Of a DNA stretch of 64,000 bases, positions 17,264-62,941 are shown piece after piece. Source of the stretch: Bacteroidales bacterium (GTDB lineage Bacteria; Bacteroidota; Bacteroidia; Bacteroidales; PUMT01); assembly GCA_007125955.1 (NCBI GenBank), contig SLCF01000031.1:31637-95636 (forward strand). Reading direction: 5' to 3'. The notes beneath the pieces were generated by a model. The model saw only the letters and a list, made by a program, of their open reading frames with translations, made no database searches and was not told the DNA's origin. Position 1 is the stretch's first letter. Each line of letters starts with the position of its first letter. Both the position numbers and the translations under genes were made by a program.

Positions 17264-17464
17264 ATGAAAGGCAAAGTTAAATGGTTTGATTCAGCCAAAG
17301 GTTATGGTTTTATCCATTCAGAAGAAGGGGATGATGTATTTGTCCACTATACGGGAATTGAACATGAAGGCTTCAGGTCTCTTGAAGAGGGTCAGGAAGT
17401 TACGTTTGAAATAATTGATGGCAAGAGAGGCCCTCAGGCAACTGAGGTTAAGCTTGTTGAATAG
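17264..17464 (+). CDS. Cold-shock protein (CspA family)
   Basis: GKVKWFD..KGYGFI and DVFVHY RNP motifs; 66 aa. Confidence 0.97.
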
Positions 17465-17578: not shown

Positions 17579-18148
17579 TCAGAAAAACAGCCCTATCCGG
17601 AACACAGTCGGAGGATAAAGCGATACACCGTTAATATCCAGCTCAAACAATACAGCCAGGTTCACAAAGCTATTCTCCCCCGTTTGATACCTGAATCCGC
17701 CACCTGCCAGATATACAGGATGCCAGAAACGTCCCCCTTCATCATCACCGCTCCCGAAATGCCGACGCTCAAGGCTGATAAGTTCCGTTTCGGCATGCAG
17801 AAACAGGCCTCCTTGCATACGGAAGGGCAGCAGTTCATCCAGGTTCTCAACCAGAAAGTAATCAACCAGCAACCCTGTACCGTATATGTGTGTGTCGAAC
17901 ATATTAAGAAGTCGCTTGTTCCTGTAAAACTGATATTTTCCGGTCAGGGCAACCCTCAGTTTCGGTGTAAAAACATATCCGGCCATCGGAGTAATGTCGA
18001 ACTGGTTAATATCTCCCATATGAATCCCGATATAACTACCAAAAAAATGTTTTCTGCCGGCTGTTTCATTTCCGGAAGCAACATTGAAGAAAAAGGTTAA
18101 AAAAAGGAAAGAAAGCAATATTTTGCATTTACCGGACACAGTTTTCAT
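17579..18148 (-). CDS. Hypothetical outer-membrane beta-barrel protein
   Basis: Signal peptide, alternating amphipathic strands, C-terminal Phe (FRIGLFF). Confidence 0.55.
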   Translation of the reverse strand: MKTVSGKCKILLSFLFLTFFFNVASGNETAGRKHFFGSYIGIHMGDINQFDITPMAGYVFTPKLRVALTGKYQFYRNKRLLNMFDTHIYGTGLLVDYFLVENLDELLPFRMQGGLFLHAETELISLERRHFGSGDDEGGRFWHPVYLAGGGFRYQTGENSFVNLAVLFELDINGVSLYPPTVFRIGLFF

Positions 18149-18185
18149 TATTGAATCTTTAATTAATTTTTGGTTTATTCCATAC

Positions 18186-19262
18186 CTATTTATAGGTTTT
18201 GCTCTCTACTTTCCCGGTTAACACCATATAACCGTTCATTGCAAGTGACTTCATCTCATCTTCACCCGGATAAACAACTACGGGTGCAATGAAAGAAACC
18301 ATATCCCTTACATATTTTACAAGCATATCATTGTATGCTATTCCGCCGGTCAGAATAATAGCGTCAACCTTGCCTTTAAGCACGGCTGACATTGAGCCGA
18401 TCTCTTTTGAAACCTGGTATGACAATGCATCCTGGATGAGCGCTGCTTTTTCATCACCTTCTTTTGCACTTATTTCAACGTCATGTGCATTATTGGTATC
18501 AAGATAAGCCATGTAACCACCCTTTCCTGTTATCATTCTTTTTACCTCTTCCATTGTATAATCCCCACTGAAACAAGTGCTTACAAGAGCGCCGACAGGA
18601 AGTGTCCCCGACCTTTCAGGAGAAAAAGGCCCTTCCCCGTCAAGTGCATTGTTAACATCGATAACCCTGCCCCTGTTATGGGCGCCGACGGATATGCCCC
18701 CGCCCAGATGAACTACAATAAGGCTTAACTCTTCATATTCTCTGTTTGTTGTTTCTGAATAGGCACGTGCAACCGCTTTCTGGTTGAGGGCGTGAAATAT
18801 GCTCATCCTCTTGAATTTCGGATGGCCGCTTATCCTTGCCACTTCCTGCATCTCATCCACAACTACCGGGTCGGCTATAAAAGCCCTTGCACCATCCGTT
18901 CTGGAAGCAATTTCATAAGCAATCAATCCTCCCAGATTGCTCGCATGCTGACCGAGAAACCCTATTCTGAGATCCTCCATCATTTTCTGATTGACCTCGT
19001 ATACCCCTGATTCAATTGGTTTGACCAGTCCGCCTCTTCCGACTACAGCTGAAATATCATTTATGTCTGTACTGGCATTTTCAAGCTCTTTGAGGATAAT
19101 TTCCATCCTGAATTCATACTGATCGGATATATTTTTAAAAGGCTTGAGGTCTTCTGCGGAATGCTTTATATTCTTGAGAAAAACCGACTTGTTATTATTG
19201 TATAAGGCAATCTTAGTAGATGTGGAACCTGGATTGACAGCCAGAATTAACAGATCTTCCAT
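18186..19262 (-). CDS. buk: Butyrate kinase
   Basis: NPGSTSTK, GRGG, HASNLG, FHALNQKA, HLGGGISVG, PERSG, PGEDE. Confidence 0.95.
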   Translation of the reverse strand: MEDLLILAVNPGSTSTKIALYNNNKSVFLKNIKHSAEDLKPFKNISDQYEFRMEIILKELENASTDINDISAVVGRGGLVKPIESGVYEVNQKMMEDLRIGFLGQHASNLGGLIAYEIASRTDGARAFIADPVVVDEMQEVARISGHPKFKRMSIFHALNQKAVARAYSETTNREYEELSLIVVHLGGGISVGAHNRGRVIDVNNALDGEGPFSPERSGTLPVGALVSTCFSGDYTMEEVKRMITGKGGYMAYLDTNNAHDVEISAKEGDEKAALIQDALSYQVSKEIGSMSAVLKGKVDAIILTGGIAYNDMLVKYVRDMVSFIAPVVVYPGEDEMKSLAMNGYMVLTGKVESKTYK

Positions 19263-19427
19263 TGTAAAAAATTTGCTTTATGAATTTTAAAATTTTCTTT
19301 CTCTATTAAGATAAAAAACGATCGTTAACGCTTATAAGTATTCATTAAAACATTGGTCTTATTTATACTGCCGTAACAATATCTCATTCTGTTCTGCGAA
19401 GATATTGAAAATATCTTCCTGAACGAT

Positions 19428-20330
19428 TTATGCTGTTATCGCTGCAAGTGCAATTGAGTAAAGCTTGGTTTTTGATGTGTCTCCTCTTGAAGATAAAACC
19501 ACCGGAACCTTTGCTCCTACAACTATGGCTCCCTGTTCACCTGCTGCCAGCTTTGAATTAGTCTTGTAAAAAATATTACCCGATTCGATATTCGGAAACA
19601 AAAGGCAGTCAGCATCCCCTGCCACCTCACTTTTAATACCTTTGATATCAGCAGAAACCTTATCAACGGCAAGATCAAGCGCCAGCGGGCCCTCTACAAA
19701 TGCATTACCAAACCTTCCCCTCTCAGCCATTTTTGAAATGACAGCCGCATCTGTGCTGGCAGGCATATTGGGTGAAGGCTGCTCTGTTGCCGCTATCAGG
19801 GCTACCTTTGGCTTTTCTAAACCAATTGCCTTTGCGGTGTTTATAAGATGACATGTTTGTGCAATTTTCTGTTTCAGGTCGGGTAGAGGTATAATTGCCG
19901 CATCCGAGATTATCATCAATTTGTGATATACCGGGTTTTCTACAACAGCAACGTGACTAAGTATTTCGTTTGGCACCATCAGTCCGCTCTCCTTGTTGAG
20001 AATCGCTTTCATATATTTCTCCGTTCCAAGATTGCCCTTCATAATCATGTTGCCTTTCCCTTCATTGATGAGTGAAACAGACCTTTCAGCAGCTTCACTG
20101 TCCGATGATACCTGGTCAATGACAAACTTACCTGCATCTATATTAAGTTCTTCACACCTCTTCATTATAGTCTGCCGGTCACCAACCAGAGTTGCATAGA
20201 CAAGACCCAGATCAACCGCTTCATTTACTGCCTCTATAGTGTGGGCATCAACCGCCCAGGCAACAATAAGCCTCTTTTTTTCCTTATCCTTCAGAATACC
20301 AAATAGTTGTTCAAGTTTTTCAATAAGCAT
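19428..20330 (-). CDS. ptb: Phosphate butyryltransferase / phosphate acyltransferase
   Basis: MKG, SDAAI..P, EGPLALDLA, PNIESGN, SRGD; directly upstream of buk. Confidence 0.9.
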   Translation of the reverse strand: MLIEKLEQLFGILKDKEKKRLIVAWAVDAHTIEAVNEAVDLGLVYATLVGDRQTIMKRCEELNIDAGKFVIDQVSSDSEAAERSVSLINEGKGNMIMKGNLGTEKYMKAILNKESGLMVPNEILSHVAVVENPVYHKLMIISDAAIIPLPDLKQKIAQTCHLINTAKAIGLEKPKVALIAATEQPSPNMPASTDAAVISKMAERGRFGNAFVEGPLALDLAVDKVSADIKGIKSEVAGDADCLLFPNIESGNIFYKTNSKLAAGEQGAIVVGAKVPVVLSSRGDTSKTKLYSIALAAITA

Positions 20331-20394
20331 GCCCGTGTAAACTTTTAATTAAACAATTATACTGAATTATTTTGTTCGTTTCTCCTCTTAATGC

Positions 20395-20444
20395 AGTGAT
20401 AAAAAAAAATTACCAAAAGCTTACCTTTGGTAATTTTCTATCAC
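20395..20444 (-). terminator. Terminator after ackA
   Basis: 12-bp stem AAAATTACCAAA/TTTGGTAATTTT (20406-20437) with a T run on the minus strand. Confidence 0.7.
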
Positions 20445-20510
20445 GGGCTTCAAAAAGGCTGCCCGGTTAATAGTGCTATGTATAATTCCCAGTAGAGCAA
20501 AATCCTGATT

Positions 20511-21713
20511 TTACATTTTTGAAATGATCCTCTGTGTATCTTCGGCAATAACAAGCTCCTCATTTGTGGGAACAACCATTATTGTACCCTTTGAGTTATC
20601 CTTGCTTATTATTGCAGTTTCCCCCCGGAGGCCCTTGTTTATATCTTCATCCAGCTCCAGATTGAGGAATCCGAGATTTTCACATATCCCCCTTCTTGTA
20701 TTGCAGGCATTTTCTCCTATACCACCTGTGAATATAAGCAGATCGATTCCTCCCATTGCAGCGGAGTAGGCGCCTATATACTTTTTAACACGGTAATCAT
20801 ACATTTTCAGTCCCATTATTGCCCTTTTATTTTCTTTTTCTGCCTCAATCTCAATTTCCCGCATATCTGAAGATATACCGGTAACTCCGAGCATACCTGA
20901 CTGTTTGTTGATCAGGTTATTCACCGAGCCCAGATCGATCTTTTCCTTAGCCATTAAAAAGGTAAGAACACCCAGGTCAAGATCACCGGTACGGGTACCC
21001 ATTATCAAACCTTCCACAGGAGTAAACCCCATTGAAGTATCAACCGATTTGCCCCGGTCAATTGCTGCAAGTGAAGCACCGTTGCCAAGGTGACACGTAA
21101 TTATTTTCATCCCTTCAATATCCTTGCCAAGGAACTCACACGCCTTTTTTGCAACGAATTTGTGACTTGTCCCGTGAAAACCGTATCTGCGTACTGCGTA
21201 TTTTGTATAAAGCGAATAAGGAATGCCGTACATGTAGGCATAATCCGGCATAGTCTGGTGAAATGACGTGTCAAATACAGCCACCTGCCTTACACCGGGC
21301 AGAAGTGTACGCATTGCATTTATGCCTTTCAGGTTTGCAGGGTTGTGCAGCGGCGCCAGTTCACAACACTTCTCTATCTCACTGTAAGCGTAATCATCTA
21401 TGTAAGTGCTGTCACTGAACTTCTCTCCTCCGTGAGCCACCCTGTGACCAACAGCTTCTATTTCAGACAGGTTTTCAATGCATCCGTGTTTTTTGCTTGT
21501 AAGCACCCCCAGAACAAACTCTATGCCTATCTGGTGGTCTACTATTTCACCGTCAAACTGTACTTTTTCTCCCCCGGGTTTTTCCAGCTTCAGGAATGAT
21601 CCTTTAAGTCCTATCTTCTCAACAATCCCCTTCGCCAGCACATCCTTGGTTACCATGTTGAAAAGCTGATATTTAATTGATGAGCTTCCGCAGTTCAGAA
21701 CCAATATTTTCAT
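20511..21713 (-). CDS. ackA: Acetate kinase
   Basis: NCGSSS, GHRVAHGG, APLHNP, FDTSFH, YGFHGTSH, HLGNGAS, GGIGEN, PTNEE. Confidence 0.97.
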   Translation of the reverse strand: MKILVLNCGSSSIKYQLFNMVTKDVLAKGIVEKIGLKGSFLKLEKPGGEKVQFDGEIVDHQIGIEFVLGVLTSKKHGCIENLSEIEAVGHRVAHGGEKFSDSTYIDDYAYSEIEKCCELAPLHNPANLKGINAMRTLLPGVRQVAVFDTSFHQTMPDYAYMYGIPYSLYTKYAVRRYGFHGTSHKFVAKKACEFLGKDIEGMKIITCHLGNGASLAAIDRGKSVDTSMGFTPVEGLIMGTRTGDLDLGVLTFLMAKEKIDLGSVNNLINKQSGMLGVTGISSDMREIEIEAEKENKRAIMGLKMYDYRVKKYIGAYSAAMGGIDLLIFTGGIGENACNTRRGICENLGFLNLELDEDINKGLRGETAIISKDNSKGTIMVVPTNEELVIAEDTQRIISKM

Positions 21714-21748
21714 TGTATTGTATATTTTTTATCCTTGTTTTAAATCGT

Positions 21749-22720
21749 TTATTTGCAACCTTTAACCTTTTCTTCAATCTTTTTGCCATCCTTGTCGTAT
21801 TCATAAAAACCCCTGGAGGTTTTCATGCCCAGATGGTTTGCCCGCATGTACCTTTTTATTAGAGGATTGGGTTTGTAACGAACGTCTCCAAACTCTTTGT
21901 AAAGGCTCTCCATCCATTGCACTACTTTGTCAAGCCCGATCTTGTCAGCCATTTCAAAAGGTCCGTAATGTGTCCCGATACTTCTTTTGAGAACAGTATC
22001 CACATCCTCTTTTGAAGTAAGGTTTTCCATTACAACCTGGCACGCCTCATTGATTATTACAACGAAAAGCCTTACGCTCACCAGTCCGGGTGATTCGGTA
22101 ACCGTTATAACTTTTTTGTCGAGCATTTCTGCAAAAAGCAGGATTTTTTCATAAACCTCGTCAGAAGTATTAGGCCCGCGTGCCACTTCCAGTATCTTTG
22201 AATCGGGAGTAGTTGTGGAAAAATGTACTGTCAGGCACCTCCCTTTATGCTGAATATCCTCTGAAAGGTCTGTTATCGGAAGTGTTGCAGAATTGGTGAC
22301 AATAATTGTTTCCGGACCGACATGCTTTTCTATCTCACTAAACACTTCTTTTCTTGCTGTAATATTGTCTTTCTGATTTTTAGAAAGGATAGCATCGATC
22401 ACAAGGTCGCAATCCTTAAGGTCTTTATAGGAAACACTGCCTTTTATCCTTGAAAGTATACCCCTCTTCTCCCCTGCGGTCATTTTCCACTGTTCTATCA
22501 ACTGGTCAAGCTCCCTGCCCAACTCATCATATGCTTTTTTTACCAGGTGTTCGCTTTTTTCTACAAACACAACCTCAATGCCGCGGCGACTTATAATTCT
22601 TGCAATTGCCCTGCCTACAGTGCCACATCCTGCAAGACCAATTTTTGAGAACATTGATTTGGGTCTGTTATCCTTTGATAAACCATACTGTTCAATTGAT
22701 TCCTTTAATATATCTGCCAT
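21749..22720 (-). CDS. 3-hydroxyacyl-CoA dehydrogenase family protein with degenerate active site
   Basis: Rossmann GCGTVG and C-terminal GPFEMADKIGLD are present; the HFFNP motif reads HFSTT. Confidence 0.8.
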   Translation of the reverse strand: MADILKESIEQYGLSKDNRPKSMFSKIGLAGCGTVGRAIARIISRRGIEVVFVEKSEHLVKKAYDELGRELDQLIEQWKMTAGEKRGILSRIKGSVSYKDLKDCDLVIDAILSKNQKDNITARKEVFSEIEKHVGPETIIVTNSATLPITDLSEDIQHKGRCLTVHFSTTTPDSKILEVARGPNTSDEVYEKILLFAEMLDKKVITVTESPGLVSVRLFVVIINEACQVVMENLTSKEDVDTVLKRSIGTHYGPFEMADKIGLDKVVQWMESLYKEFGDVRYKPNPLIKRYMRANHLGMKTSRGFYEYDKDGKKIEEKVKGCK

Positions 22721-22754
22721 TGATTCGATTTATTTTTTTGATTTATATAAGATC

Positions 22755-23756
22755 TTAACTGTTTGCTGCCTGGTTCGCAGTGATGGCTGCCAGGTTTACT
22801 ATATCACTTACCGAACAGCCCCTGGAAAGATCGTTTATGGGAGCTGCCATTCCCTGCAGGACAGGTCCTATCGCTTCTGCACCTGCAAGTCTTTGTACAA
22901 GTTTGTATGCAATATTGCCCGACTCAAGACTTGGGAATATCAGCACATTTGCTTTCCCGGCAATTTCACTTCCGGGTGCTTTGCTGTTGCCCACCTTCTC
23001 CACAATGGCGGCATCAGCCTGAAGCTCTCCGTCAATCTTAAGATCCGGAGCCATCTCTTTTGCAATGCGTGTTGCATTAATCACTTTGTCAACCATCTCG
23101 TGTTTTGCACTTCCTTTGGTAGAAAAACTCAGCATGGCCACCCTGGGTTCAAATCCTGCAATAGCCTTTGCGGTACGGGCGGTAGCAACAGCTATTTCAG
23201 CCAACTCCTTTTCGTTGGGATCAGGATGAACCGCACAATCGGCAAATACAAGCATGCCGTCTTCACCATACCCGCCATTCTTGAGTATCATTATGAAAGC
23301 TCCTGAAACAACAGTGATGCCGGGCATAGTCTTTACATATTGAAATGCAGGCCTTAACACATCACCGGTTGCATTCATAGCACCTGCAACTTCACCGTCA
23401 GCATCACCCGCCTTTATCATAAGCGTTGAAAGATAAAGAGGGTTCTCTATCAGTTTTCCTGCTTCTTCACGTGTGAGACCTTTCTTTTTGCGTATCTCAA
23501 CCATCATATCTATATACTTCTCCTTGTTTGGATGATCTGCAGGATTTACAATTTCTGCTGCTGATATATTTGACAAACCAAGTTTTTTTGCCTCCTCTTC
23601 TATTTCCGGACGGTTTCCGATGAGTATTATTTTGGCTATCTTCTCACCAAGTAATACGTCGGCTGCTTTCAAAGTACGCTCCTCAAATGATTCCGGCAAC
23701 ACAATCCGTTTGGAATGCTGTTTGGCACTTATTTTGATTTTTTCCAGTAAATCCAT
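22755..23756 (-). CDS. pta: Phosphate acetyltransferase
   Basis: IVLPES, FADCAV.PDP, MLSFSTKGS, DGELQADAA, GNIAYKL, DLSRGC. Confidence 0.97.
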   Translation of the reverse strand: MDLLEKIKISAKQHSKRIVLPESFEERTLKAADVLLGEKIAKIILIGNRPEIEEEAKKLGLSNISAAEIVNPADHPNKEKYIDMMVEIRKKKGLTREEAGKLIENPLYLSTLMIKAGDADGEVAGAMNATGDVLRPAFQYVKTMPGITVVSGAFIMILKNGGYGEDGMLVFADCAVHPDPNEKELAEIAVATARTAKAIAGFEPRVAMLSFSTKGSAKHEMVDKVINATRIAKEMAPDLKIDGELQADAAIVEKVGNSKAPGSEIAGKANVLIFPSLESGNIAYKLVQRLAGAEAIGPVLQGMAAPINDLSRGCSVSDIVNLAAITANQAANS

Positions 23757-23885
23757 ATCTGTAAGGCATTTAAGAATTTAAAAAATATTATTTTAGGGTA
23801 ACGTAAAATTGCTGTTTTTAATGAAAAATAGTTATGATATATATCATTATTTTTCACTGGCTCTATTGTTGTACACCCAAAATAT

Positions 23886-24656
23886 CTAACCTGTGTCAAT
23901 TCTTAATCCGTCCCATGCCAGGCTGATGCCTTCGGGAAGTTCCCGCGAAACCTCCGAATGGAGACCCATTTGATGGCTTATGTGGGTAATATAACCCGAC
24001 TCCGGGTTCATCTCTTTAATCAGCTGAACCGCTTCTGACAGGGTAAAATGAGATATATGGGTCTCTTTTCGAAGCGCATTTACTACAATTAACCTTGAAC
24101 CGTGTATCTTCTCCTTTTCTTCCCCGGGAATATAATTTGCATCGGTAATATAGGTAAAATCACCTATCCTGAACCCGAAAACAGGAAGGTTGTAATGAAA
24201 AGCCCTTATAGGGGTTATCACCATTCCGTTTACCATGAATCTCCTGTTCTCAATAATATTAATGTTTATTCGCGGGACTCCCGGGTATTTATTTTCTTCT
24301 TCTTCAAAAACATAGGCGAATTCCCTTTCAATGGCAGACCTGACCTTCTTCTCCATAAAAACGTCAATCGGTTTGCTCATAACGAAATTGAATGCCCGTA
24401 CATCGTCGAGCCCTGCAATATGATCCTTGTGCTCGTGGGTAAACAATATGGCGTCAAGCTTGCCGACATTTTCGCGAAGCATTTGCTGACGGAAATCGGG
24501 GCCAGAATCTATTGCAAATGTGAGACCTTCAATTTCCACCAGGACTGATGTCCGCAGTCTTTTATCCTTAGAGTCAGAAGATTTGCAAACCCTGCATTTG
24601 CATGCTATTACAGGTACTCCCTGTGATGTGCCTGTGCCCAGAAATGTAACTTTCAA
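23886..24656 (-). CDS. MBL-fold metallohydrolase (PhnP/YycJ-like)
   Basis: LGTGTSQGVP..C.C..C, THEHKDHI, HISH; TTG start. Confidence 0.85.
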   Translation of the reverse strand: MKVTFLGTGTSQGVPVIACKCRVCKSSDSKDKRLRTSVLVEIEGLTFAIDSGPDFRQQMLRENVGKLDAILFTHEHKDHIAGLDDVRAFNFVMSKPIDVFMEKKVRSAIEREFAYVFEEEENKYPGVPRININIIENRRFMVNGMVITPIRAFHYNLPVFGFRIGDFTYITDANYIPGEEKEKIHGSRLIVVNALRKETHISHFTLSEAVQLIKEMNPESGYITHISHQMGLHSEVSRELPEGISLAWDGLRIDTG

Positions 24657-24671
24657 AACAATTTTTTAATT

Positions 24672-24679
24672 CAAATGTA
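24672..24679 (-). promoter_or_regulatory. -7 element (TACATTTG) for the MBL hydrolase gene
   Basis: Exact TAnnTTTG 16 nt upstream of the start. Confidence 0.5.
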
Positions 24680-24837
24680 CATGAATTTCCCATCTAAAAA
24701 AACTTCCAAAATGCTCTTCTATATAAATGGAAATCGACGAAGTCAATCTTTTATCCTAAAATACACACAGAATGATGTAAAAAAACAGACAATCGGATAT
24801 TAAATTTTATTTACTTTTACTGATTAATTCCAAAGGT

Positions 24838-25578
24838 ATGCGCGGTAAATTATATCTTATTCCAACACTCCTGGGCGAATCTGAACCTCAAATGGTGCTC
24901 CCGGGCAAAGTGTTCAATGTACTTCCGGGAATATCCCACTTCATTGTTGAAAACCTCAGGACTGCACGGCGTTTTCTTGTAAAAACAGGGGTTGCAAAAC
25001 CGGTTGACCAACTAAGCTTTTCAATGCTCAATAAACATACACCCCGCAATGAAACTGAAAACCTTATCTCGCCCGCAATGAAAGGACATGACATGGGATT
25101 GCTGTCGGAAGCGGGAATTCCTTGTGTAGCAGACCCGGGCGCCGAAATTGTAATGGCTGCCCACCGTAAAGGCATAACTGTTTCACCACTTACAGGTCCG
25201 TCTTCAATAACACTGGCACTGATGTCTTCCGGGCTTAACGGACAGGAGTTTGCTTTCAACGGATACCTGCCTGTAAAAAAAAGCGAAAGGAAGAAGGCGA
25301 TTAAAGTCCTTGAAAAAAGATTTGAAAGTATGGGGCAAACGCAGATCTTTATGGAGACACCCTACAGGAACCTGCAGCTGATGACCGACCTGTTAAGTAC
25401 CTGCAAGGATGACACCTATTTGTGCGTGGCTTGTGACCTCACACTTCCGTCTGAATTTATTGCAACAAAAACCATAAAACTTTGGAAAAAGGAGATTCCC
25501 TCCCTGAACAAAAGACCGGCCATCTTTATTATCGGCACCGCTTACAGTGCTGCAAAAGGTAAAAGCACTTCCATCTGA
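24838..25578 (+). CDS. SAM-dependent methyltransferase, tetrapyrrole-methylase/RsmI-like family
   Basis: LLSEAGIPCVADPG, GPSSI.LALM.SGL, F.GYLP, IFMETPYRN. Confidence 0.8.
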   Translation: MRGKLYLIPTLLGESEPQMVLPGKVFNVLPGISHFIVENLRTARRFLVKTGVAKPVDQLSFSMLNKHTPRNETENLISPAMKGHDMGLLSEAGIPCVADPGAEIVMAAHRKGITVSPLTGPSSITLALMSSGLNGQEFAFNGYLPVKKSERKKAIKVLEKRFESMGQTQIFMETPYRNLQLMTDLLSTCKDDTYLCVACDLTLPSEFIATKTIKLWKKEIPSLNKRPAIFIIGTAYSAAKGKSTSI

Positions 25579-25640: not shown

Positions 25641-26570
25641 TTAATACAACTCCAGGAGCTCAACCTCATAAATTATAGTCATCCAGGGAGGTATTCTCCC
25701 GTCGGCAGTTCCATCCGGACCGTAACCTCTCCATGAGGGCACTATCAATTTGGCTTTTCCGCCCGGTTTCATCATCTTGATCCCCGCCTCAAATCCCGGG
25801 GTTGCTGCATGTTCTCCGAGAACAAACTCAAAGGGCTGCGTATCTTTAGTGGTATTGTACATCCTGCCGTCAATAAACCAGCCTGTGTAATGTACAAGAA
25901 CATTCATATGTATGTCGGGATGATCACCGGTCCCTTCCTCAATTTCAATGTAGTAGATATCAAAATCTGTCGGATCTTCCACAATATTATTATCTTCAAC
26001 ATATTGCGTTATAAGCTGTCTTTCATGTCTTTCCGGGTCATCAATAACCGTATGCAGCTTAATATCAAATATAAGGGTAGAGTATTTGGGGATTTCCCCA
26101 ACCGAGCTGGATCCGTATGCAAGATGGGAAGGAATGATCAGGCGCGCCCTTCCGCCTTCCTTCATCATAAGCAACCCCTCTTTGACACCTTCAAGCGGGG
26201 TATTGTCTATTCTGAACTTGTAGGGTCCGTAAACTATATCAGGATTATAAAGATCATTATCCTTTGCCTCCTGCTCATATGTGGTTTCAACAATCTTTCC
26301 GGTTATAAGCCTTACCCTGTATTCAATTATAAGGTAATTACCCATGGCAGGAGAAACCCCGTCACCTTCCTCCATTTCTATGTAATATAGCCCGCTTTCA
26401 GTAGGCTCCTCATCAATATTGTTGTCTATCAGGTACTGTTCCAGCAGGCGCTGTTCCCTGTCTATGTATTTTTGATCATCACTATCGGTGCATGAAACAG
26501 CTCCGAACAGAAATACCGTTACCAATAATACAGCCGCAAAAAAAATTCCGGGTTTCATCACTTCTCTCAT
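25641..26570 (-). CDS. Two-domain FKBP-type PPIase lipoprotein
   Basis: Lipobox AVSC; two FKBP domains, each preceded by T.SG/D..Y....EG.G. Confidence 0.85.
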   Translation of the reverse strand: MREVMKPGIFFAAVLLVTVFLFGAVSCTDSDDQKYIDREQRLLEQYLIDNNIDEEPTESGLYYIEMEEGDGVSPAMGNYLIIEYRVRLITGKIVETTYEQEAKDNDLYNPDIVYGPYKFRIDNTPLEGVKEGLLMMKEGGRARLIIPSHLAYGSSSVGEIPKYSTLIFDIKLHTVIDDPERHERQLITQYVEDNNIVEDPTDFDIYYIEIEEGTGDHPDIHMNVLVHYTGWFIDGRMYNTTKDTQPFEFVLGEHAATPGFEAGIKMMKPGGKAKLIVPSWRGYGPDGTADGRIPPWMTIIYEVELLELY

Positions 26571-26609
26571 TTGTTAATTAATTTATAATCAATTGATAAA
26601 CTTTCAGGT

Positions 26610-27518
26610 TTATTTTACGCTCAATATTTCAATCTCAAAAAATAACGGAGTTGAGGGGGGAATTATTCCTGTAGAAGAACCTTTTTCTCCAAAGGCCAGT
26701 GCAGGGGGCAAATATACAAGTGCCTTCCCTCCCTCACTCATCAATCCCGCAACCACTTCCAGACCTCTTATAAGTTGCCCCTCATGTCCGTATACATATT
26801 CAAACGGCTCATTTCTCATCCTGGTTGAATCAAATATCGTGCCGTCAATGAACTTTCCTTCATAATGAATTGTTACAGTATCGCCGGCACTTATCCTTTT
26901 CCCCTCTCCTTCCTGCAAGCGGTAATAAAGTATGCCGCTGCTTCCGGATCCGGGATGAAGATCACCTTCTTCAAGCAACTTTTCAAAATCCGTATCCCCT
27001 TTCTTTGAGCCCCGCAAATGATCCTTAAATATATCCAGTTCCTGCATGTATTCTTCCTCACTCATAATATCGATCATATCAACAGCAATGATCATTTTAT
27101 CATCGCTGTCTATAAAACCCGGTAATGCGGCTTCAATAGTGCGATTGAAAAAATCATTTGCAGGTACTATAAATTCTGCACTGTCACCTTTTGACATCAT
27201 CATAAAACACTCTTCCACGGAACCTTTAAATGCCGGTTCGGAAAGTCTGAATCTTCTCAAAGCACTGAAAAAAACAGAGTCATCAATTGTCCTGTATTCA
27301 AGTGCAACAGTAATGTAATCTCCCGCAGAGGGCTTTACAGTATTTTCGCCTATCCTGCATAGCTTATAGTAATATCCTGTTCCTGAAGATGTAAACCCGG
27401 TGTATGGCGATTTGTCAGCACAGTTATAAAACAATAAGAGTAACAGCGGCAAAAACAGGAGATGAACCCTGTTCCCCCTTTTTTTCTTTTTTTCTGTATT
27501 TATAATATATCCCGTCAT
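26610..27518 (-). CDS. FKBP-type PPIase lipoprotein (degenerate N-domain plus canonical C-domain)
   Basis: Lipobox-like FYNC; C-domain HYEGKFIDGTIFDS...AFG...IPP. Confidence 0.8.
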   Translation of the reverse strand: MTGYIINTEKKKKRGNRVHLLFLPLLLLLFYNCADKSPYTGFTSSGTGYYYKLCRIGENTVKPSAGDYITVALEYRTIDDSVFFSALRRFRLSEPAFKGSVEECFMMMSKGDSAEFIVPANDFFNRTIEAALPGFIDSDDKMIIAVDMIDIMSEEEYMQELDIFKDHLRGSKKGDTDFEKLLEEGDLHPGSGSSGILYYRLQEGEGKRISAGDTVTIHYEGKFIDGTIFDSTRMRNEPFEYVYGHEGQLIRGLEVVAGLMSEGGKALVYLPPALAFGEKGSSTGIIPPSTPLFFEIEILSVK

Positions 27519-27532
27519 TAAACGGCAACAGA

Positions 27533-28087
27533 TTAATTTACATTTATAACTTCCAGTTCATAAACAATAATCGCACGGGGCGGGATCCTGTTCTGGTCGC
27601 CGATAAGTCCATGCGCCAGGTAAGAGGGTATTACCAAACGGGCCTTATCACCCTGTCTGAGCAAAAGGATACCCTCTTCAAGTCCGGCTTCTGCCTCCCC
27701 CTGCCCCGGCCTGAATACCTTGTTCCCGTCACTTCCCGAACTGTAGCAAACGGTGCCGTCAAGCAGGCTTACAGTGTAAGCGATTTCAACCCTGCTGCCT
27801 GTTTTCACCCTTTCACCACTGCCTTTCTCATATATCTGATAACGAAGTCCGCTTCCTGTTTTTTCCACATCCCAGCCGCGTCTCCGGGAATAAGACTCAA
27901 TCAGGTCTGCTTCCCTTGCTGCCAGTTGCCTGTTTACATTCACAAGCTCCTCCCTGTTTATTGCAGCCGGACTTCTTTGTTCTTCCGGAGCCCTGCCCCG
28001 GGAGCATGAAAAAGCCACCGGCAAAAGAAAAACAGCAACGATCAATGCCCTGAATAGCTGACAGTTGTATTTATAAGGGATTTTCAT
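27533..28087 (-). CDS. Single-domain FKBP-type lipoprotein (GldI-like)
   Basis: Lipobox AFSC, helical N-region, TGSGLRY, IPP.A...YELE. Confidence 0.8.
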   Translation of the reverse strand: MKIPYKYNCQLFRALIVAVFLLPVAFSCSRGRAPEEQRSPAAINREELVNVNRQLAAREADLIESYSRRRGWDVEKTGSGLRYQIYEKGSGERVKTGSRVEIAYTVSLLDGTVCYSSGSDGNKVFRPGQGEAEAGLEEGILLLRQGDKARLVIPSYLAHGLIGDQNRIPPRAIIVYELEVINVN

Positions 28088-60744: not shown

Positions 60745-60752
60745 TATCTTTG
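60745..60752 (+). promoter_or_regulatory. -7 element (TATCTTTG) for the riboswitch-btuB leader
   Basis: Exact TAnnTTTG directly upstream of riboswitch P1. Confidence 0.65.
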
Positions 60753-60755
60753 CAA

Positions 60756-60981
60756 TTGATTTGGTTTCCCCCGGCCTAACCTGCCGGAGGGATGAAAAGG
60801 GAATCAGGTGCCCCGGATGTCCGGGAATTCCTGAGCAGTACCCGCTGCTGTAAGCTCTTTTAACTTACTGAACACACCTGCCACTGTTGGGTCCCAAACC
60901 CAAAACGGGAAGGCGTTCAGAAAGGGAGCAAGCCAGAAGACCTGCCAGATCAAAACTTTAGTAATGTTCGGGTTAAACATT
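60756..60981 (+). ncRNA. Cobalamin riboswitch (AdoCbl-type with accessory domain)
   Basis: AAAAGGGAA.CAGGTG, CCCGCTGCTGTAA, GCCACTG, GGGAAGG and AGCCAGAAGACCTGCC. P1 TTGATTTGG/CCAGATCAA; candidate P13 at 60963-60981; upstream of a TonB receptor gene. Confidence 0.95.
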
Positions 60982-60997
60982 TAAAATTTCTACAGTT

Positions 60998-62941
60998 TTG
61001 AAAATACATATTGCTTCACTTGCTCTTGCTTTTTTTGTTTTTCCGGTTATTTCAGCCGGCATGGCCGGCGACACACTGTCACTTTACCATATTGATGAAG
61101 TAACGGTCGTTCAGCCCCGTGTACGCTTCTTTCAGGAAGACAGGAAGGTTACCGAAGCCGATTCGCTGGCTCTCTCACTTTTTTATGATGACGACCTGGG
61201 TAACCTGCTCAGATACATTTCCCCGGCATATATAAATGTTAGGGGAGGAAACGGCTCTGCATCGGGACTGACTCTGAGGGGAACAAATTCTTACCAGACA
61301 ACTGTTAAATGGAACGGCTTCACTTTGAATTCCCTTACACTTGGTTCAGCCGACCTGTCGATTATCCCGGTAGAAAGCATGGAGTCGGTTGCTGTTGTGC
61401 ACGGTTCATCGGGAACAGTTTCAGGGAGCGGATCATTTGGCGGATCTGTGGAGTTAAGGAACAAGCCCGACTGGGACAACAGTCTCAGTATAAATGCAAC
61501 ATCCGGCTACGGGAGTTTCAGCTCCAAAAGGGCATCTGTTTCCGCCAGGGCGGGCAACAAAAAAATACAATACCACCTCAATTTTTTCCGGGTTAACGCT
61601 CTGAACGATTTCAGCTATACTGATGTGATGAAACCGGGAAACCCGGAAGAGACAATTGTCCACAATTCTCTGGAAAACACGGGTATAATACAGAATTTAT
61701 TCGTCCGCCTTTCACACAATCAAAATATTGAAGCCGGCTTATGGTACCAGTCAAAGACAAAAGAGATCCCTGCAATTATGGGGTCATATACAACAGGAAA
61801 TGCTGTGCAGCGCGACAGTGTTATAAGGGGTTATGTGAACTGGTCCTTACTGATGGAAAGATCCAGGCTGACACTCAGCTCTTCTGTAATGGATGAGTAT
61901 ATGTTCTACAGGGTGAAACAGCCGGATGACGAAACGGAATATTCTGTCAATTCATCGATCAGGGGCAGGAAGTTCATGAACGAGTTCGATTACCGGCTTT
62001 ACCTGAGCAACATGATAACGCTGGATGCCGGTGCTTCCTACAACAATATGGAGGCCGATGTGGAAAGCTACAACGGAACCGTTTCGGAATACCAGTCGGC
62101 TCTCTTCTCAGGTTTAAGGCTGAACTATAAGGGAATCGTCTCAAATATAACTTTAAGGAAGGAGTTCCATCCTGAAATATCCATACCTCTCCTTTTTTCT
62201 GCCGGTGTTCGTTACGCTCCGCAGGGAAAGGAATACGTGTTCAGGATGAGCTATTCCGACCAGTTCAGGTTGCCGACATTCAACGACAAGTACTGGCGCC
62301 CCGGCGGTAATCCCTCCCTTCTGCCCGAGTCAGGACAAACAATTGACGGGGGAATGGAATTCTCCCGAACTGTGACGGACGATCTGCATCTTAAAGGCGA
62401 AGCAGGTTTATACCATTCACGAATCAGAAACATGATACAATGGGTTCCGGCAGGAAGCTACTGGGCTCCCCGTAACAGCAAGGAGGTGCATATAAACGGA
62501 GCGGAGCTTTCCCTCTCGTCCACTTACAGTATAAGGGACTACCGGTTGAGGTTTGACGGAAGTTACAGTTACAGCATGCCTTCAATAAGGGATACATATG
62601 AAGAGGAGACCGGGCTGGAAGGGAATATGCCCGAATATGTGCCTGCACACTCTGGCAGCGGACGGCTCTCCCTGCTGAACGATAAGGGACACGCAGCTGT
62701 TTCGTTTAACTACACAGGCAGCCGTTATACCACAAGGGACAACAATCCCTTATACAAGATGCCCCCTTTTGCACTTATTAATCTGCATTTAGGATACAGC
62801 ATCGAACTTCAGCAGGATCTCGAAACCTCTCTTCAGTTCAGAATAATGAACCTTTTTGACCGGAAATACCAGGTTGTGCGAGCATATCCCATGCCGGGAA
62901 GGTCTTTGCAGGCTTCTCTCATTGTCCGGTTTTCCAGATAA
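60998..62941 (+). CDS. btuB: TonB-dependent receptor, vitamin B12 transporter-like
   Basis: Signal peptide, plug domain (LRGT...T.VKWNG..LNS, VVHG..G..SG.G..GG), barrel ending in MPGR...F; riboswitch-led; TTG start. Confidence 0.8.
   Translation: MKIHIASLALAFFVFPVISAGMAGDTLSLYHIDEVTVVQPRVRFFQEDRKVTEADSLALSLFYDDDLGNLLRYISPAYINVRGGNGSASGLTLRGTNSYQTTVKWNGFTLNSLTLGSADLSIIPVESMESVAVVHGSSGTVSGSGSFGGSVELRNKPDWDNSLSINATSGYGSFSSKRASVSARAGNKKIQYHLNFFRVNALNDFSYTDVMKPGNPEETIVHNSLENTGIIQNLFVRLSHNQNIEAGLWYQSKTKEIPAIMGSYTTGNAVQRDSVIRGYVNWSLLMERSRLTLSSSVMDEYMFYRVKQPDDETEYSVNSSIRGRKFMNEFDYRLYLSNMITLDAGASYNNMEADVESYNGTVSEYQSALFSGLRLNYKGIVSNITLRKEFHPEISIPLLFSAGVRYAPQGKEYVFRMSYSDQFRLPTFNDKYWRPGGNPSLLPESGQTIDGGMEFSRTVTDDLHLKGEAGLYHSRIRNMIQWVPAGSYWAPRNSKEVHINGAELSLSSTYSIRDYRLRFDGSYSYSMPSIRDTYEEETGLEGNMPEYVPAHSGSGRLSLLNDKGHAAVSFNYTGSRYTTRDNNPLYKMPPFALINLHLGYSIELQQDLETSLQFRIMNLFDRKYQVVRAYPMPGRSLQASLIVRFSR

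Follow-up and report, generated by a model that had tools for sequence, protein, structure and literature searches.

A conserved HBD-like gene directly upstream of ackA: an uncharacterized branch of the 3-hydroxyacyl-CoA dehydrogenase family

What is a gene resembling that of a 3-hydroxybutyryl-CoA dehydrogenase (HBD) doing between the genes for phosphotransacetylase (Pta) and acetate kinase (AckA)? The question is raised by a 64,000-nucleotide stretch of a Bacteroidales bacterium genome (GenBank assembly GCA_007125955.1, contig SLCF01000031.1, positions 31,637–95,636; the whole stretch is hereafter the window). On its minus strand, the window carries five co-oriented genes in the order pta, hbdL, ackA, ptb and buk, with 34 nucleotides (nt) between pta and hbdL, 35 nt between hbdL and ackA, and a terminator hairpin between ackA and ptb. 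The name hbdL is our own, given to the 323-residue HBD-like open reading frame (ORF) that separates pta from ackA. An initial annotation had described this ORF as a degenerate 3-hydroxyacyl-CoA dehydrogenase (HAD) homolog in a tight same-strand pta-hbdL-ackA order with these spacings; ORF coordinates and the Pfam and NCBIfam identities of the neighbors (Table 1) confirm the arrangement. We find that hbdL represents a large, conserved and uncharacterized branch of the HAD family, located directly 5′ of ackA in several phyla.

The HBD fold with a remodeled active site

The hbdL protein matches the Pfam families 3HCDH_N (132.2 bits) and 3HCDH (84.8 bits), both above the gathering score (cut-offs of about 22). 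Its AlphaFold2 model has a mean predicted local distance difference test score (pLDDT) of 83.9, with low confidence for the N-terminal 20 residues and an insertion loop, and its top Foldseek matches are all HBD or HAD structures. The two-domain fold is that of HBD (C. butyricum 4KUG, C. acetobutylicum 6AA8, F. prausnitzii 9JHZ) and of human HAD/SCHAD (1F0Y), with template modeling (TM) scores of 0.79–0.89 to HBD structures. At 34% identity to 4KUG, hbdL shares with HBD the GxGxxG motif and its acidic residue, a His–Glu dyad with the same 12-residue spacing, and the NEA helix. Among NCBIfam HBD models the highest score, 240.4 bits, is to NF004474, which requires 408, and none of the 17 HAD-type models reaches its cut-off.

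Residue correspondence was established from the alignment of hbdL to 4KUG (E 2e-55) together with a 94-sequence set, with codons checked, and residue roles were carried over by alignment to published HBD complexes. In F. prausnitzii HBD, Asp31, Glu90, Lys95, Asn115 and Ser117 hold NAD, Lys54 and Lys56 hold the ribose and 3′-phosphate of CoA, and the acetoacetyl group is hydrogen-bonded by Ser117, His136 and Asn186; S117A is the mutant used for trapping the ternary complex (PMC11476959). Ser117, His138, Glu150 and Asn188 of 4KUG correspond to Ala145, His166, Glu178 and Val216 of hbdL; Ser117 and Asn188 are Ser137 and Asn208 in human SCHAD numbering. The HxFxPxxxMxLxE signature is broken, reading H-F-S-T-T-T-P-D-S-K-I-L-E, with Phe3, Pro5 and Met9 replaced and the His, the Glu and their spacing remaining. 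Judged from the alignment, hbdL has kept the cofactor site and the acid/base pair, without both side-chain donors to the 3-oxo group.

The changes listed in the initial annotation—Ser to Ala, Asn to Val and HFFNP to HFSTT, with His and Glu retained—are all reproduced by this alignment, and the N-terminal extension it described is present and 25 residues long. Its view that the NAD-binding EAVxE..K motif had been replaced did not hold: the motif is instead interrupted by a five-residue insertion, the segment running D109-A-I-L, insertion S113–K117, and D118-N-I-T-A-R123-K124, with acidic and basic residues present. S113, R123 and K124 are invariant in 28 aligned orthologs, and the alignment indicates that the acidic and basic NAD contacts are probably retained.

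Could hbdL nonetheless be a canonical dehydrogenase acting on (S)-3-hydroxybutyryl-CoA or 3-hydroxyacyl-CoA in butyrate or fatty-acid metabolism, one that stands beside ackA by chance? The strong Pfam matches, the HBD fold, the retained His–Glu dyad and the presence of ptb and buk downstream would suit such an enzyme, and source annotations mostly name the family “3-hydroxybutyryl-CoA dehydrogenase”. We regard this as improbable, and a canonical HBD role for hbdL as unlikely. hbdL fails five tested features of a functional HBD: the curated score, which is below every curated model; the Ser and the Asn, replaced by Ala145 and Val216 so that the 3-oxo group loses both of its hydrogen-bond donors; the signature motif; and the pathway context. 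Canonical paralogs from the same genomes, moreover, form a separate clade and are never found beside ackA. The score, the lost Ser, Asn and signature, and the separate clade likewise support the earlier statement that the protein is no standard HBD. hbdL further departs from HBD in an invariant Trp in the clamp-roof helix, in the five residues inserted beside the NAD ribose contacts, and in its conserved N-terminal extension.

The pathway context was assessed in the window genome, which is 2.41 Mb in length and 90.7% complete. hbdL is its only real 3HCDH_N protein, and one acyl-CoA dehydrogenase is encoded. No ECH_1 crotonase was found in this 90.7%-complete genome by profile search, and Thiolase_N gave weak partial matches (≤52 bits, covering about 60–110 of 260 model positions), which we interpret as condensing enzymes of the fatty-acid-synthase type, not as true thiolases. 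The absence of thiolase and crotonase, noted at first for the neighborhood, therefore applies both at the locus and genome-wide. On the complete chromosome of Gaoshiqia hydrogeniformans, hbdL is the only strong HAD-family match. A gene table for Petrimonas mucosa lists consecutive tags ING2E5A_0730 (pta), ING2E5A_0729 (“hbd”) and ING2E5A_0728 (ackA), and the butanoate pathway of this organism could not be completed by the authors (PMC7768429). Apart from this table, no publication on the hbdL family or an hbd-ackA module was found in the searchable literature; journals outside that literature may differ.

A distinct clade within the HAD family

In a maximum-likelihood tree of 94 rows, hbdL-type proteins form one clade (67 rows; Shimodaira–Hasegawa-like approximate likelihood ratio test, SH-aLRT, 99) on a stem of length 0.48, and canonical HBDs, including those from the same genomes, lie outside it. 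The window protein falls inside this clade and carries W78 and V216. Signatures of the clade are a Trp at the HBD Glu55 position (66 of 67 rows) and a Thr at position 118; at the Asn188 position, Thr or Val is typical, and Asn occurs only in P0121. E150 is present in all 67 rows, H138 in 61, and a basic residue matching the CoA-binding Lys54 in 64. The Ser117 position varies freely among Ser, Ala and Thr across the clade, with Ser and Ala exchanged even between near relatives (one group has 12 Ser and 7 Ala). In lineages P0168/P0392/P0393 and P0229 (loci L135 and L136), Arg replaces the catalytic His and the Ser and Asn are missing as well, with ackA immediately downstream; one of these His-less lineages is conserved at 75–87% identity among three members. 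By these sequence measures, hbdL is a member of a distinct, ancient and widespread HAD/HBD-fold sub-family. Separate from the hbdL question, the proteins P0124–P0129 (about 590 residues) consist of two tandem HBD units, apparently canonical in both halves.

The constant partner is ackA

At least 523 species encode an hbdL relative, as counted in a scan of one genome per species. The initial annotation had staked its proposal on the position of the gene being conserved, and a synteny survey finds it conserved in related genomes. Among the 80 best loci of Bacteroidales sensu lato, which include Paludibacter, Odoribacter, Draconibacterium, Gaoshiqia and Mangrovibacterium, ackA lies directly 3′ of hbdL at 77 of the 78 informative loci and pta directly 5′ at 61 of 78. 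The genes ptb or buk occur further downstream at 46 of 62 informative loci, with the five-gene order pta-hbdL-ackA-ptb-buk recurring, and the upstream genes at loci without pta are mutually unrelated. In an even sample of Bacteroidales, a single hbdL ortholog is found in 130 of 301 species (about 43%) and in 96 of 209 genera.

Turning to other lineages, a phylum-wide sample yielded nothing but canonical-type matches in other orders of the same class, and a band of matches at 200–247 bits in other classes. We compared 23 loci of this 200–247-bit group with 16 lower-scoring canonical-type loci, of which 10 share a genome with the first group. At all 23 loci from the other Bacteroidota classes, ackA follows on the same strand (adjacent at 22, about 2.5 kb away at L097); it does so at none of the 13 canonical HBD paralog loci with usable ORFs. 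An (L/I)E-x-(L/Y/F) motif, like that of the hbdL N-terminal extension, is also seen in other classes. More distant members, recovered by exhaustive search of representatives, come from sources named Eisenbacteria, Acidobacteriia and Calditrichaeota. Eight of ten (P0121, P0123, P0134, P0140, P0287, P0327, P0168 and P0229) have ackA directly downstream, often with a 4-nt overlap; the other two are followed by folD (P0130) and a fabI-like gene (P0224). Setting ackA aside, these neighborhoods are wholly different. The hbdL-linked AckA is the sole acetate kinase in six genomes, four of them single-contig, and the window AckA is the only true AckA in its genome. No fusion of hbdL to AckA or Pta was found among the best 150 representatives.

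Together, these data define the old cross-phylum unit as the two-gene hbdL-ackA pair, with pta an additional upstream neighbor in most Bacteroidales. The original description of a gene inserted between pta and ackA is accurate for the order in most Bacteroidales, but the constant partner is ackA, pta being absent from many loci and from some genomes. Several genomes in which hbdL-ackA has no adjacent pta encode no canonical Pta at all, their phosphotransacetylase domains being Ptb-like or fused to malic enzyme. Three hbdL-ackA genomes (G304, G306 and G307; loci L077, L016 and L069), one of them a complete 5.3-Mb chromosome, encode no canonical Pta and only a Ptb-like protein of about 312 residues, and G001 and G305 encode fusions of malic enzyme to phosphotransacetylase.

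Selection and transcription

A word-indexed search returned 872 hbdL relatives, the best 120 of which (53–100% identity) come from Bacteroidales and Marinilabiliales genomes. Column identity averages 73% across 28 aligned members, and invariant residues are concentrated in the NAD site and cleft (N143, H166, E178, P211-G-L-x-S-x-R217, N224-E-A and F255). Among the 120 members, the Ser position is Thr in 110, Ser in 6, Ala in 3 and Pro in 1, the Ala cases being the window protein and its two closest relatives; the Ser-to-Ala claim is thus true of the window protein, whereas most orthologs have Thr. The Asn188 position is Val in 111 members, Ile in 7 and Asn in none, with Thr in sister sub-families. 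His166 and Glu178 occur in all 120, and the Asn of HFFNP is Thr in 113. G31, G33, G36, E54, N143 and R123/K124 are invariant in the family, N143 and R123/K124 being the equivalents of Asn115 and Lys95, and the NAD site is retained in all sub-families.

The most conserved part of the family is the remodeled cleft itself (N-S-T/A-T, HFSTT, PGL-x-S-V-R and NEA). The term “degenerate” applied at the outset is too strong: the cleft is strongly conserved and the NAD motif and His–Glu dyad are retained in nearly all members, which argues that hbdL still binds something specific.

The ratio of nonsynonymous to synonymous substitution rates (dN/dS), a check proposed in the initial annotation, was computed against the closest genome locus (L001). 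It is about 0.085 for hbdL, indicating purifying selection, and 0.036 for pta and ackA; the values are approximate, since dS is about 1.7. Assembled RNA contigs from a soda-lake or alkali-sediment metatranscriptome cover pta, hbdL and ackA and span both the pta-hbdL junction (22663–23782) and the hbdL-ackA junction (21685–22083), with no coverage over the flanking metallo-β-lactamase (MBL)-fold gene (23850–24785). The depth of contigs is a poor guide to expression, and carried-over DNA is not fully excludable, but the uneven coverage argues for RNA. hbdL is thus transcribed in situ with pta and ackA. As a separate observation, near-verbatim copies of window positions 18000–25000 occur in metagenomes of salt lakes, soda lakes and alkali sediments (2012–2022), so that the organism is a recurrent member of the Bacteroidales of haloalkaline sediment.

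These results bear on whether the ackA adjacency is a meaningless inherited gene order and hbdL a drifting paralog heading for loss. In favor of such drift are the faster evolution of hbdL (about 2.4 times the rate of pta and ackA), its absence from 57% of sampled Bacteroidales species, and the position of two distant members beside folD or fabI. We find it scarcely credible, however, given the dN/dS of 0.085, the retention of the linkage across several phyla while all other neighbors change, the intact reading frames and 4-nt overlaps with ackA in distant members, and transcription in situ. hbdL is not a decaying gene.

Accessory partner of AckA or enzyme with a new substrate?

We tentatively propose, with somewhat less than even confidence, that hbdL acts beside acetate kinase as an accessory or regulatory partner that binds NAD(H) and a ligand. 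hbdL would still bind NAD(H), as suggested by its conserved Rossmann motif, ribose-binding acidic residue, and Asn and Lys/Arg contacts. Its remodeled cleft would hold a specific ligand, probably CoA-linked or otherwise phosphorylated, and the protein would not serve as an enzyme of butyrate metabolism or beta-oxidation. Its partner would be AckA or, in Bacteroidales, the Pta-AckA pair, and NAD- and ligand-dependent domain closure would inform the ATP-yielding acetate branch of redox and/or acyl-CoA status. Such control may resemble the NADH control of the long form of E. coli Pta, which is not found in short Pta.

Several features lead us to this proposal. Across the clade, it is the AckA linkage and the dinucleotide site that stay constant, not the catalytic set: Ser and Ala are exchanged among close relatives, and the His-less lineages retain an abutting ackA. 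The N-terminal motif, conserved yet predicted to be disordered, resembles a docking peptide. The sole partner acts on acetate, acetyl phosphate and ATP, and no redox substrate suggests itself for such a module. Short Pta enzymes lack the N-terminal domain that, in the long (class II) Pta of E. coli and Salmonella, is reported to mediate NADH inhibition and pyruvate activation. Finally, the fold itself offers a ready-made switch, as HBD undergoes large ligand-driven domain closure (PMC11476959).

A number of observations weigh against a partner role. Most non-Bacteroidales members retain the Ser, His, Glu and HFLNP Asn, with just Asn188 changed to Thr, as would suit a working dehydrogenase. The His–Glu dyad and the whole cleft are invariant in three large sub-families (about 360 sequences). 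Pure regulators usually lack the catalytic base, which here is lost only in small side lineages. We know of no regulatory subunit for any acetate kinase. The window AckA aligns without gaps to P. gingivalis AckA (6IOY). In P. gingivalis, pta stands next to ack with nothing in between, and each of the two enzymes works on its own (PMC6461089). An extra docking element in AckA was considered as a candidate feature and ruled out by the gap-free alignment, the P. gingivalis gene having no hbdL neighbor. Of the traits expected of a pseudoenzyme or sensor, hbdL shows the loss of Ser and Asn, a dN/dS of 0.085 and a retained fold, but it retains the His–Glu base.

The retained base leads to a second reading, a serious but somewhat more doubtful one, in which hbdL is a working NAD(H)-dependent oxidoreductase that has exchanged acetoacetyl-CoA for another substrate. 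The His–Glu base would perform alcohol/ketone chemistry on a CoA-linked or phosphorylated molecule that, through its metabolism, supplies or draws on the acetyl-phosphate/acetate node, which would account for the gene traveling with ackA. Beyond the His138, Glu150, NAD contacts and NEA helix that are invariant in the three large sub-families, the conserved cleft residues form a new fixed constellation; Ser117 and the HFLNP Asn persist in most non-Bacteroidales members, and a Thr at the Asn188 position is still a hydrogen-bond donor, one that, like Ser, some otherwise canonical HBDs carry there. A basic equivalent of the CoA-binding Lys54 is retained in 64 of 67 rows, and operon neighbors are more often pathway enzymes than regulators. 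Yet a module with AckA as its only constant partner offers no obvious redox substrate, no accompanying pathway genes are conserved around hbdL-ackA, Ser and Ala are exchanged among close relatives, the window protein itself has Ala145 and Val216, and the ackA linkage survives the loss of His. On balance, the accessory-partner reading is slightly favored over an active oxidoreductase with a new substrate.

A more specific catalytic role would have hbdL make or consume acetyl phosphate directly, for example by NAD+-dependent oxidation of acetaldehyde phosphate hemiacetal, so that neither CoA nor Pta is needed to supply AckA. This would explain why AckA is the sole constant partner, why several genomes lack canonical Pta, and why the residues gripping the 3-oxoacyl thioester have been replaced; acetaldehyde phosphate hemiacetal is, moreover, a secondary alcohol, the type of group oxidized by this fold. 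The His-less lineages count against it, and we know of no precedent for it; we consider it very improbable. An acyl-phosphate reductase of the glyceraldehyde-3-phosphate dehydrogenase type, with a Cys center, was also considered and rejected, as C32, C104 and C162, although invariant in the Bacteroidales branch, are missing from its sister branches.

Known systems offer partial parallels for both an accessory partner and a redirected enzyme. Members of the HAD family with non-CoA substrates—L-gulonate 3-dehydrogenase/lambda-crystallin (3ADO), L-carnitine dehydrogenase, diketoreductase (4DYD) and FHMPC dehydrogenase (4OM8)—have the same fold as hbdL and show that a change of substrate, or recruitment as a lens crystallin, is possible. 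They match hbdL with far lower scores (E 1e-10 to 1e-18), none is linked to acetate kinase, and they retain the Ser/His/Glu/Asn set. NmrA, Rex, CtBP and Gal80 are dehydrogenase-derived Rossmann NAD(H) sensors in which the dinucleotide site is retained and catalytic residues are altered, and which act via protein partners. They belong to other fold families (short-chain dehydrogenase/reductase, Rex, D-2-hydroxyacid dehydrogenase and GFO/IDH/MocA), and their partners are transcription factors, not a kinase. hbdL would thus resemble NmrA or Rex by analogy only, and to our knowledge no sensor role has been shown for any HAD-family protein. If hbdL is a sensor, the N-terminal domain of long Pta would be its physiological counterpart, both placing the acetate/ATP branch under redox control; that domain has an unrelated fold and is fused in cis to Pta, whereas hbdL is a separate candidate sensor whose constant partner is AckA.

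Organization of the locus

Features of the locus and of the hbdL protein are collected in Table 1. The window Pta, AckA and Buk score above curated cut-offs. The terminator reported after ackA is confirmed by folding: the ackA-ptb gap contains a hairpin of −21.2 kcal/mol (z −5.76, equaled by 0 of 200 shuffles) followed by a U-run. A consensus terminator scan gave no call at this AT-rich site, and a sigma-70 promoter scan is uninformative for Bacteroidota. Directly 3′ of ackA, past the terminator, lie ptb and buk, which the initial annotation had not included; both acyl-phosphate/ATP branches are thus clustered.

Table 1. Coordinates of genes, signals and hbdL protein features in the window
Feature	Position	Strand	Evidence or conservation
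pta, short (class I) phosphotransacetylase, 333 residues	22755..23756	-	PF01515 412 bits; TIGR00651 390 bits, above cut-off
hbdL, AckA-linked HBD-like protein, 323 residues	21749..22720	-	3HCDH_N + 3HCDH; below all NCBIfam HBD cut-offs
ackA, acetate kinase, 400 residues, conserved partner gene	20511..21713	-	PF00871 507 bits
Intrinsic terminator hairpin and U-run after ackA	~20401..20444	-	RNA folding
ptb, phosphate butyryltransferase-like, 300 residues	19428..20330	-	NF004472 290 bits; PF01515 144 bits
buk, butyrate kinase, 358 residues	18186..19262	-	TIGR02707 526 bits, above cut-off
hbdL N-terminal extension, residues 1-25 (MADILKESIEQYGLSKDNRPKSMFS)	22646..22720	-	E7, L14, F24 invariant, Y12, G13, S15, P20 nearly so (28 orthologs); pLDDT ~50
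NAD-binding G31-C-G-T-V-G36	22613..22630	-	Three glycines in 120/120 family members
Glu54, acidic ribose ligand	22559-22561	-	120/120 family members
Trp78, clade signature, clamp-roof helix	22487..22489	-	66/67 clade rows, 0 canonical; 120/120, 119/119, 121/121 in three sub-families
Five-residue insertion S113-K117 beside NAD ribose contacts	22370..22384	-	Alignment to 4KUG; pLDDT 65
N143-S-A145-T (canonical N-T-S-S)	22283..22294	-	Catalytic Ser to Ala
H166-F-S-T-T-T-P...E178	22187..22225	-	His-Glu dyad retained; HxFxP to HFSTT
P211-G-L-V-S-V216-R	22070..22090	-	Canonical Asn to Val

Elsewhere in the window, a 189-residue ORF with an N-terminal hydrophobic segment and no Pfam match (17579–18148, minus strand) lies between a cold-shock-domain gene (17264–17464) and buk. 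FKBP-type peptidyl-prolyl isomerase domains occur in three consecutive genes (309, 302 and 184 residues; 25641–28087, minus strand), the first with two FKBP_C matches. A cobalamin riboswitch (Rfam RF00174, 104 bits; 60745–60963, plus strand) is located just 5′ of a 647-residue ORF (60998–62941).

Significance

The practical weight of the family lies in its widespread mis-annotation: counting its members as hbd inflates the inferred capacity for butyrate formation and beta-oxidation in gut, digester and sediment metagenomes. The “incomplete butanoate pathway” of Petrimonas mucosa is a case already met (PMC7768429).

Conceptually, the family matters as a candidate for the first protein partner of AckA. 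Fermenters rely on acetate kinase as their main source of substrate-level ATP, and acetyl phosphate serves both as a global signal and as an acetyl donor; we know of no dedicated protein partner of AckA. If the accessory-partner reading is true, a conserved NAD(H)-binding partner of AckA would be a new control point tying redox state to the acetate branch; if hbdL is instead active, it would represent a new substrate class for the HAD fold.

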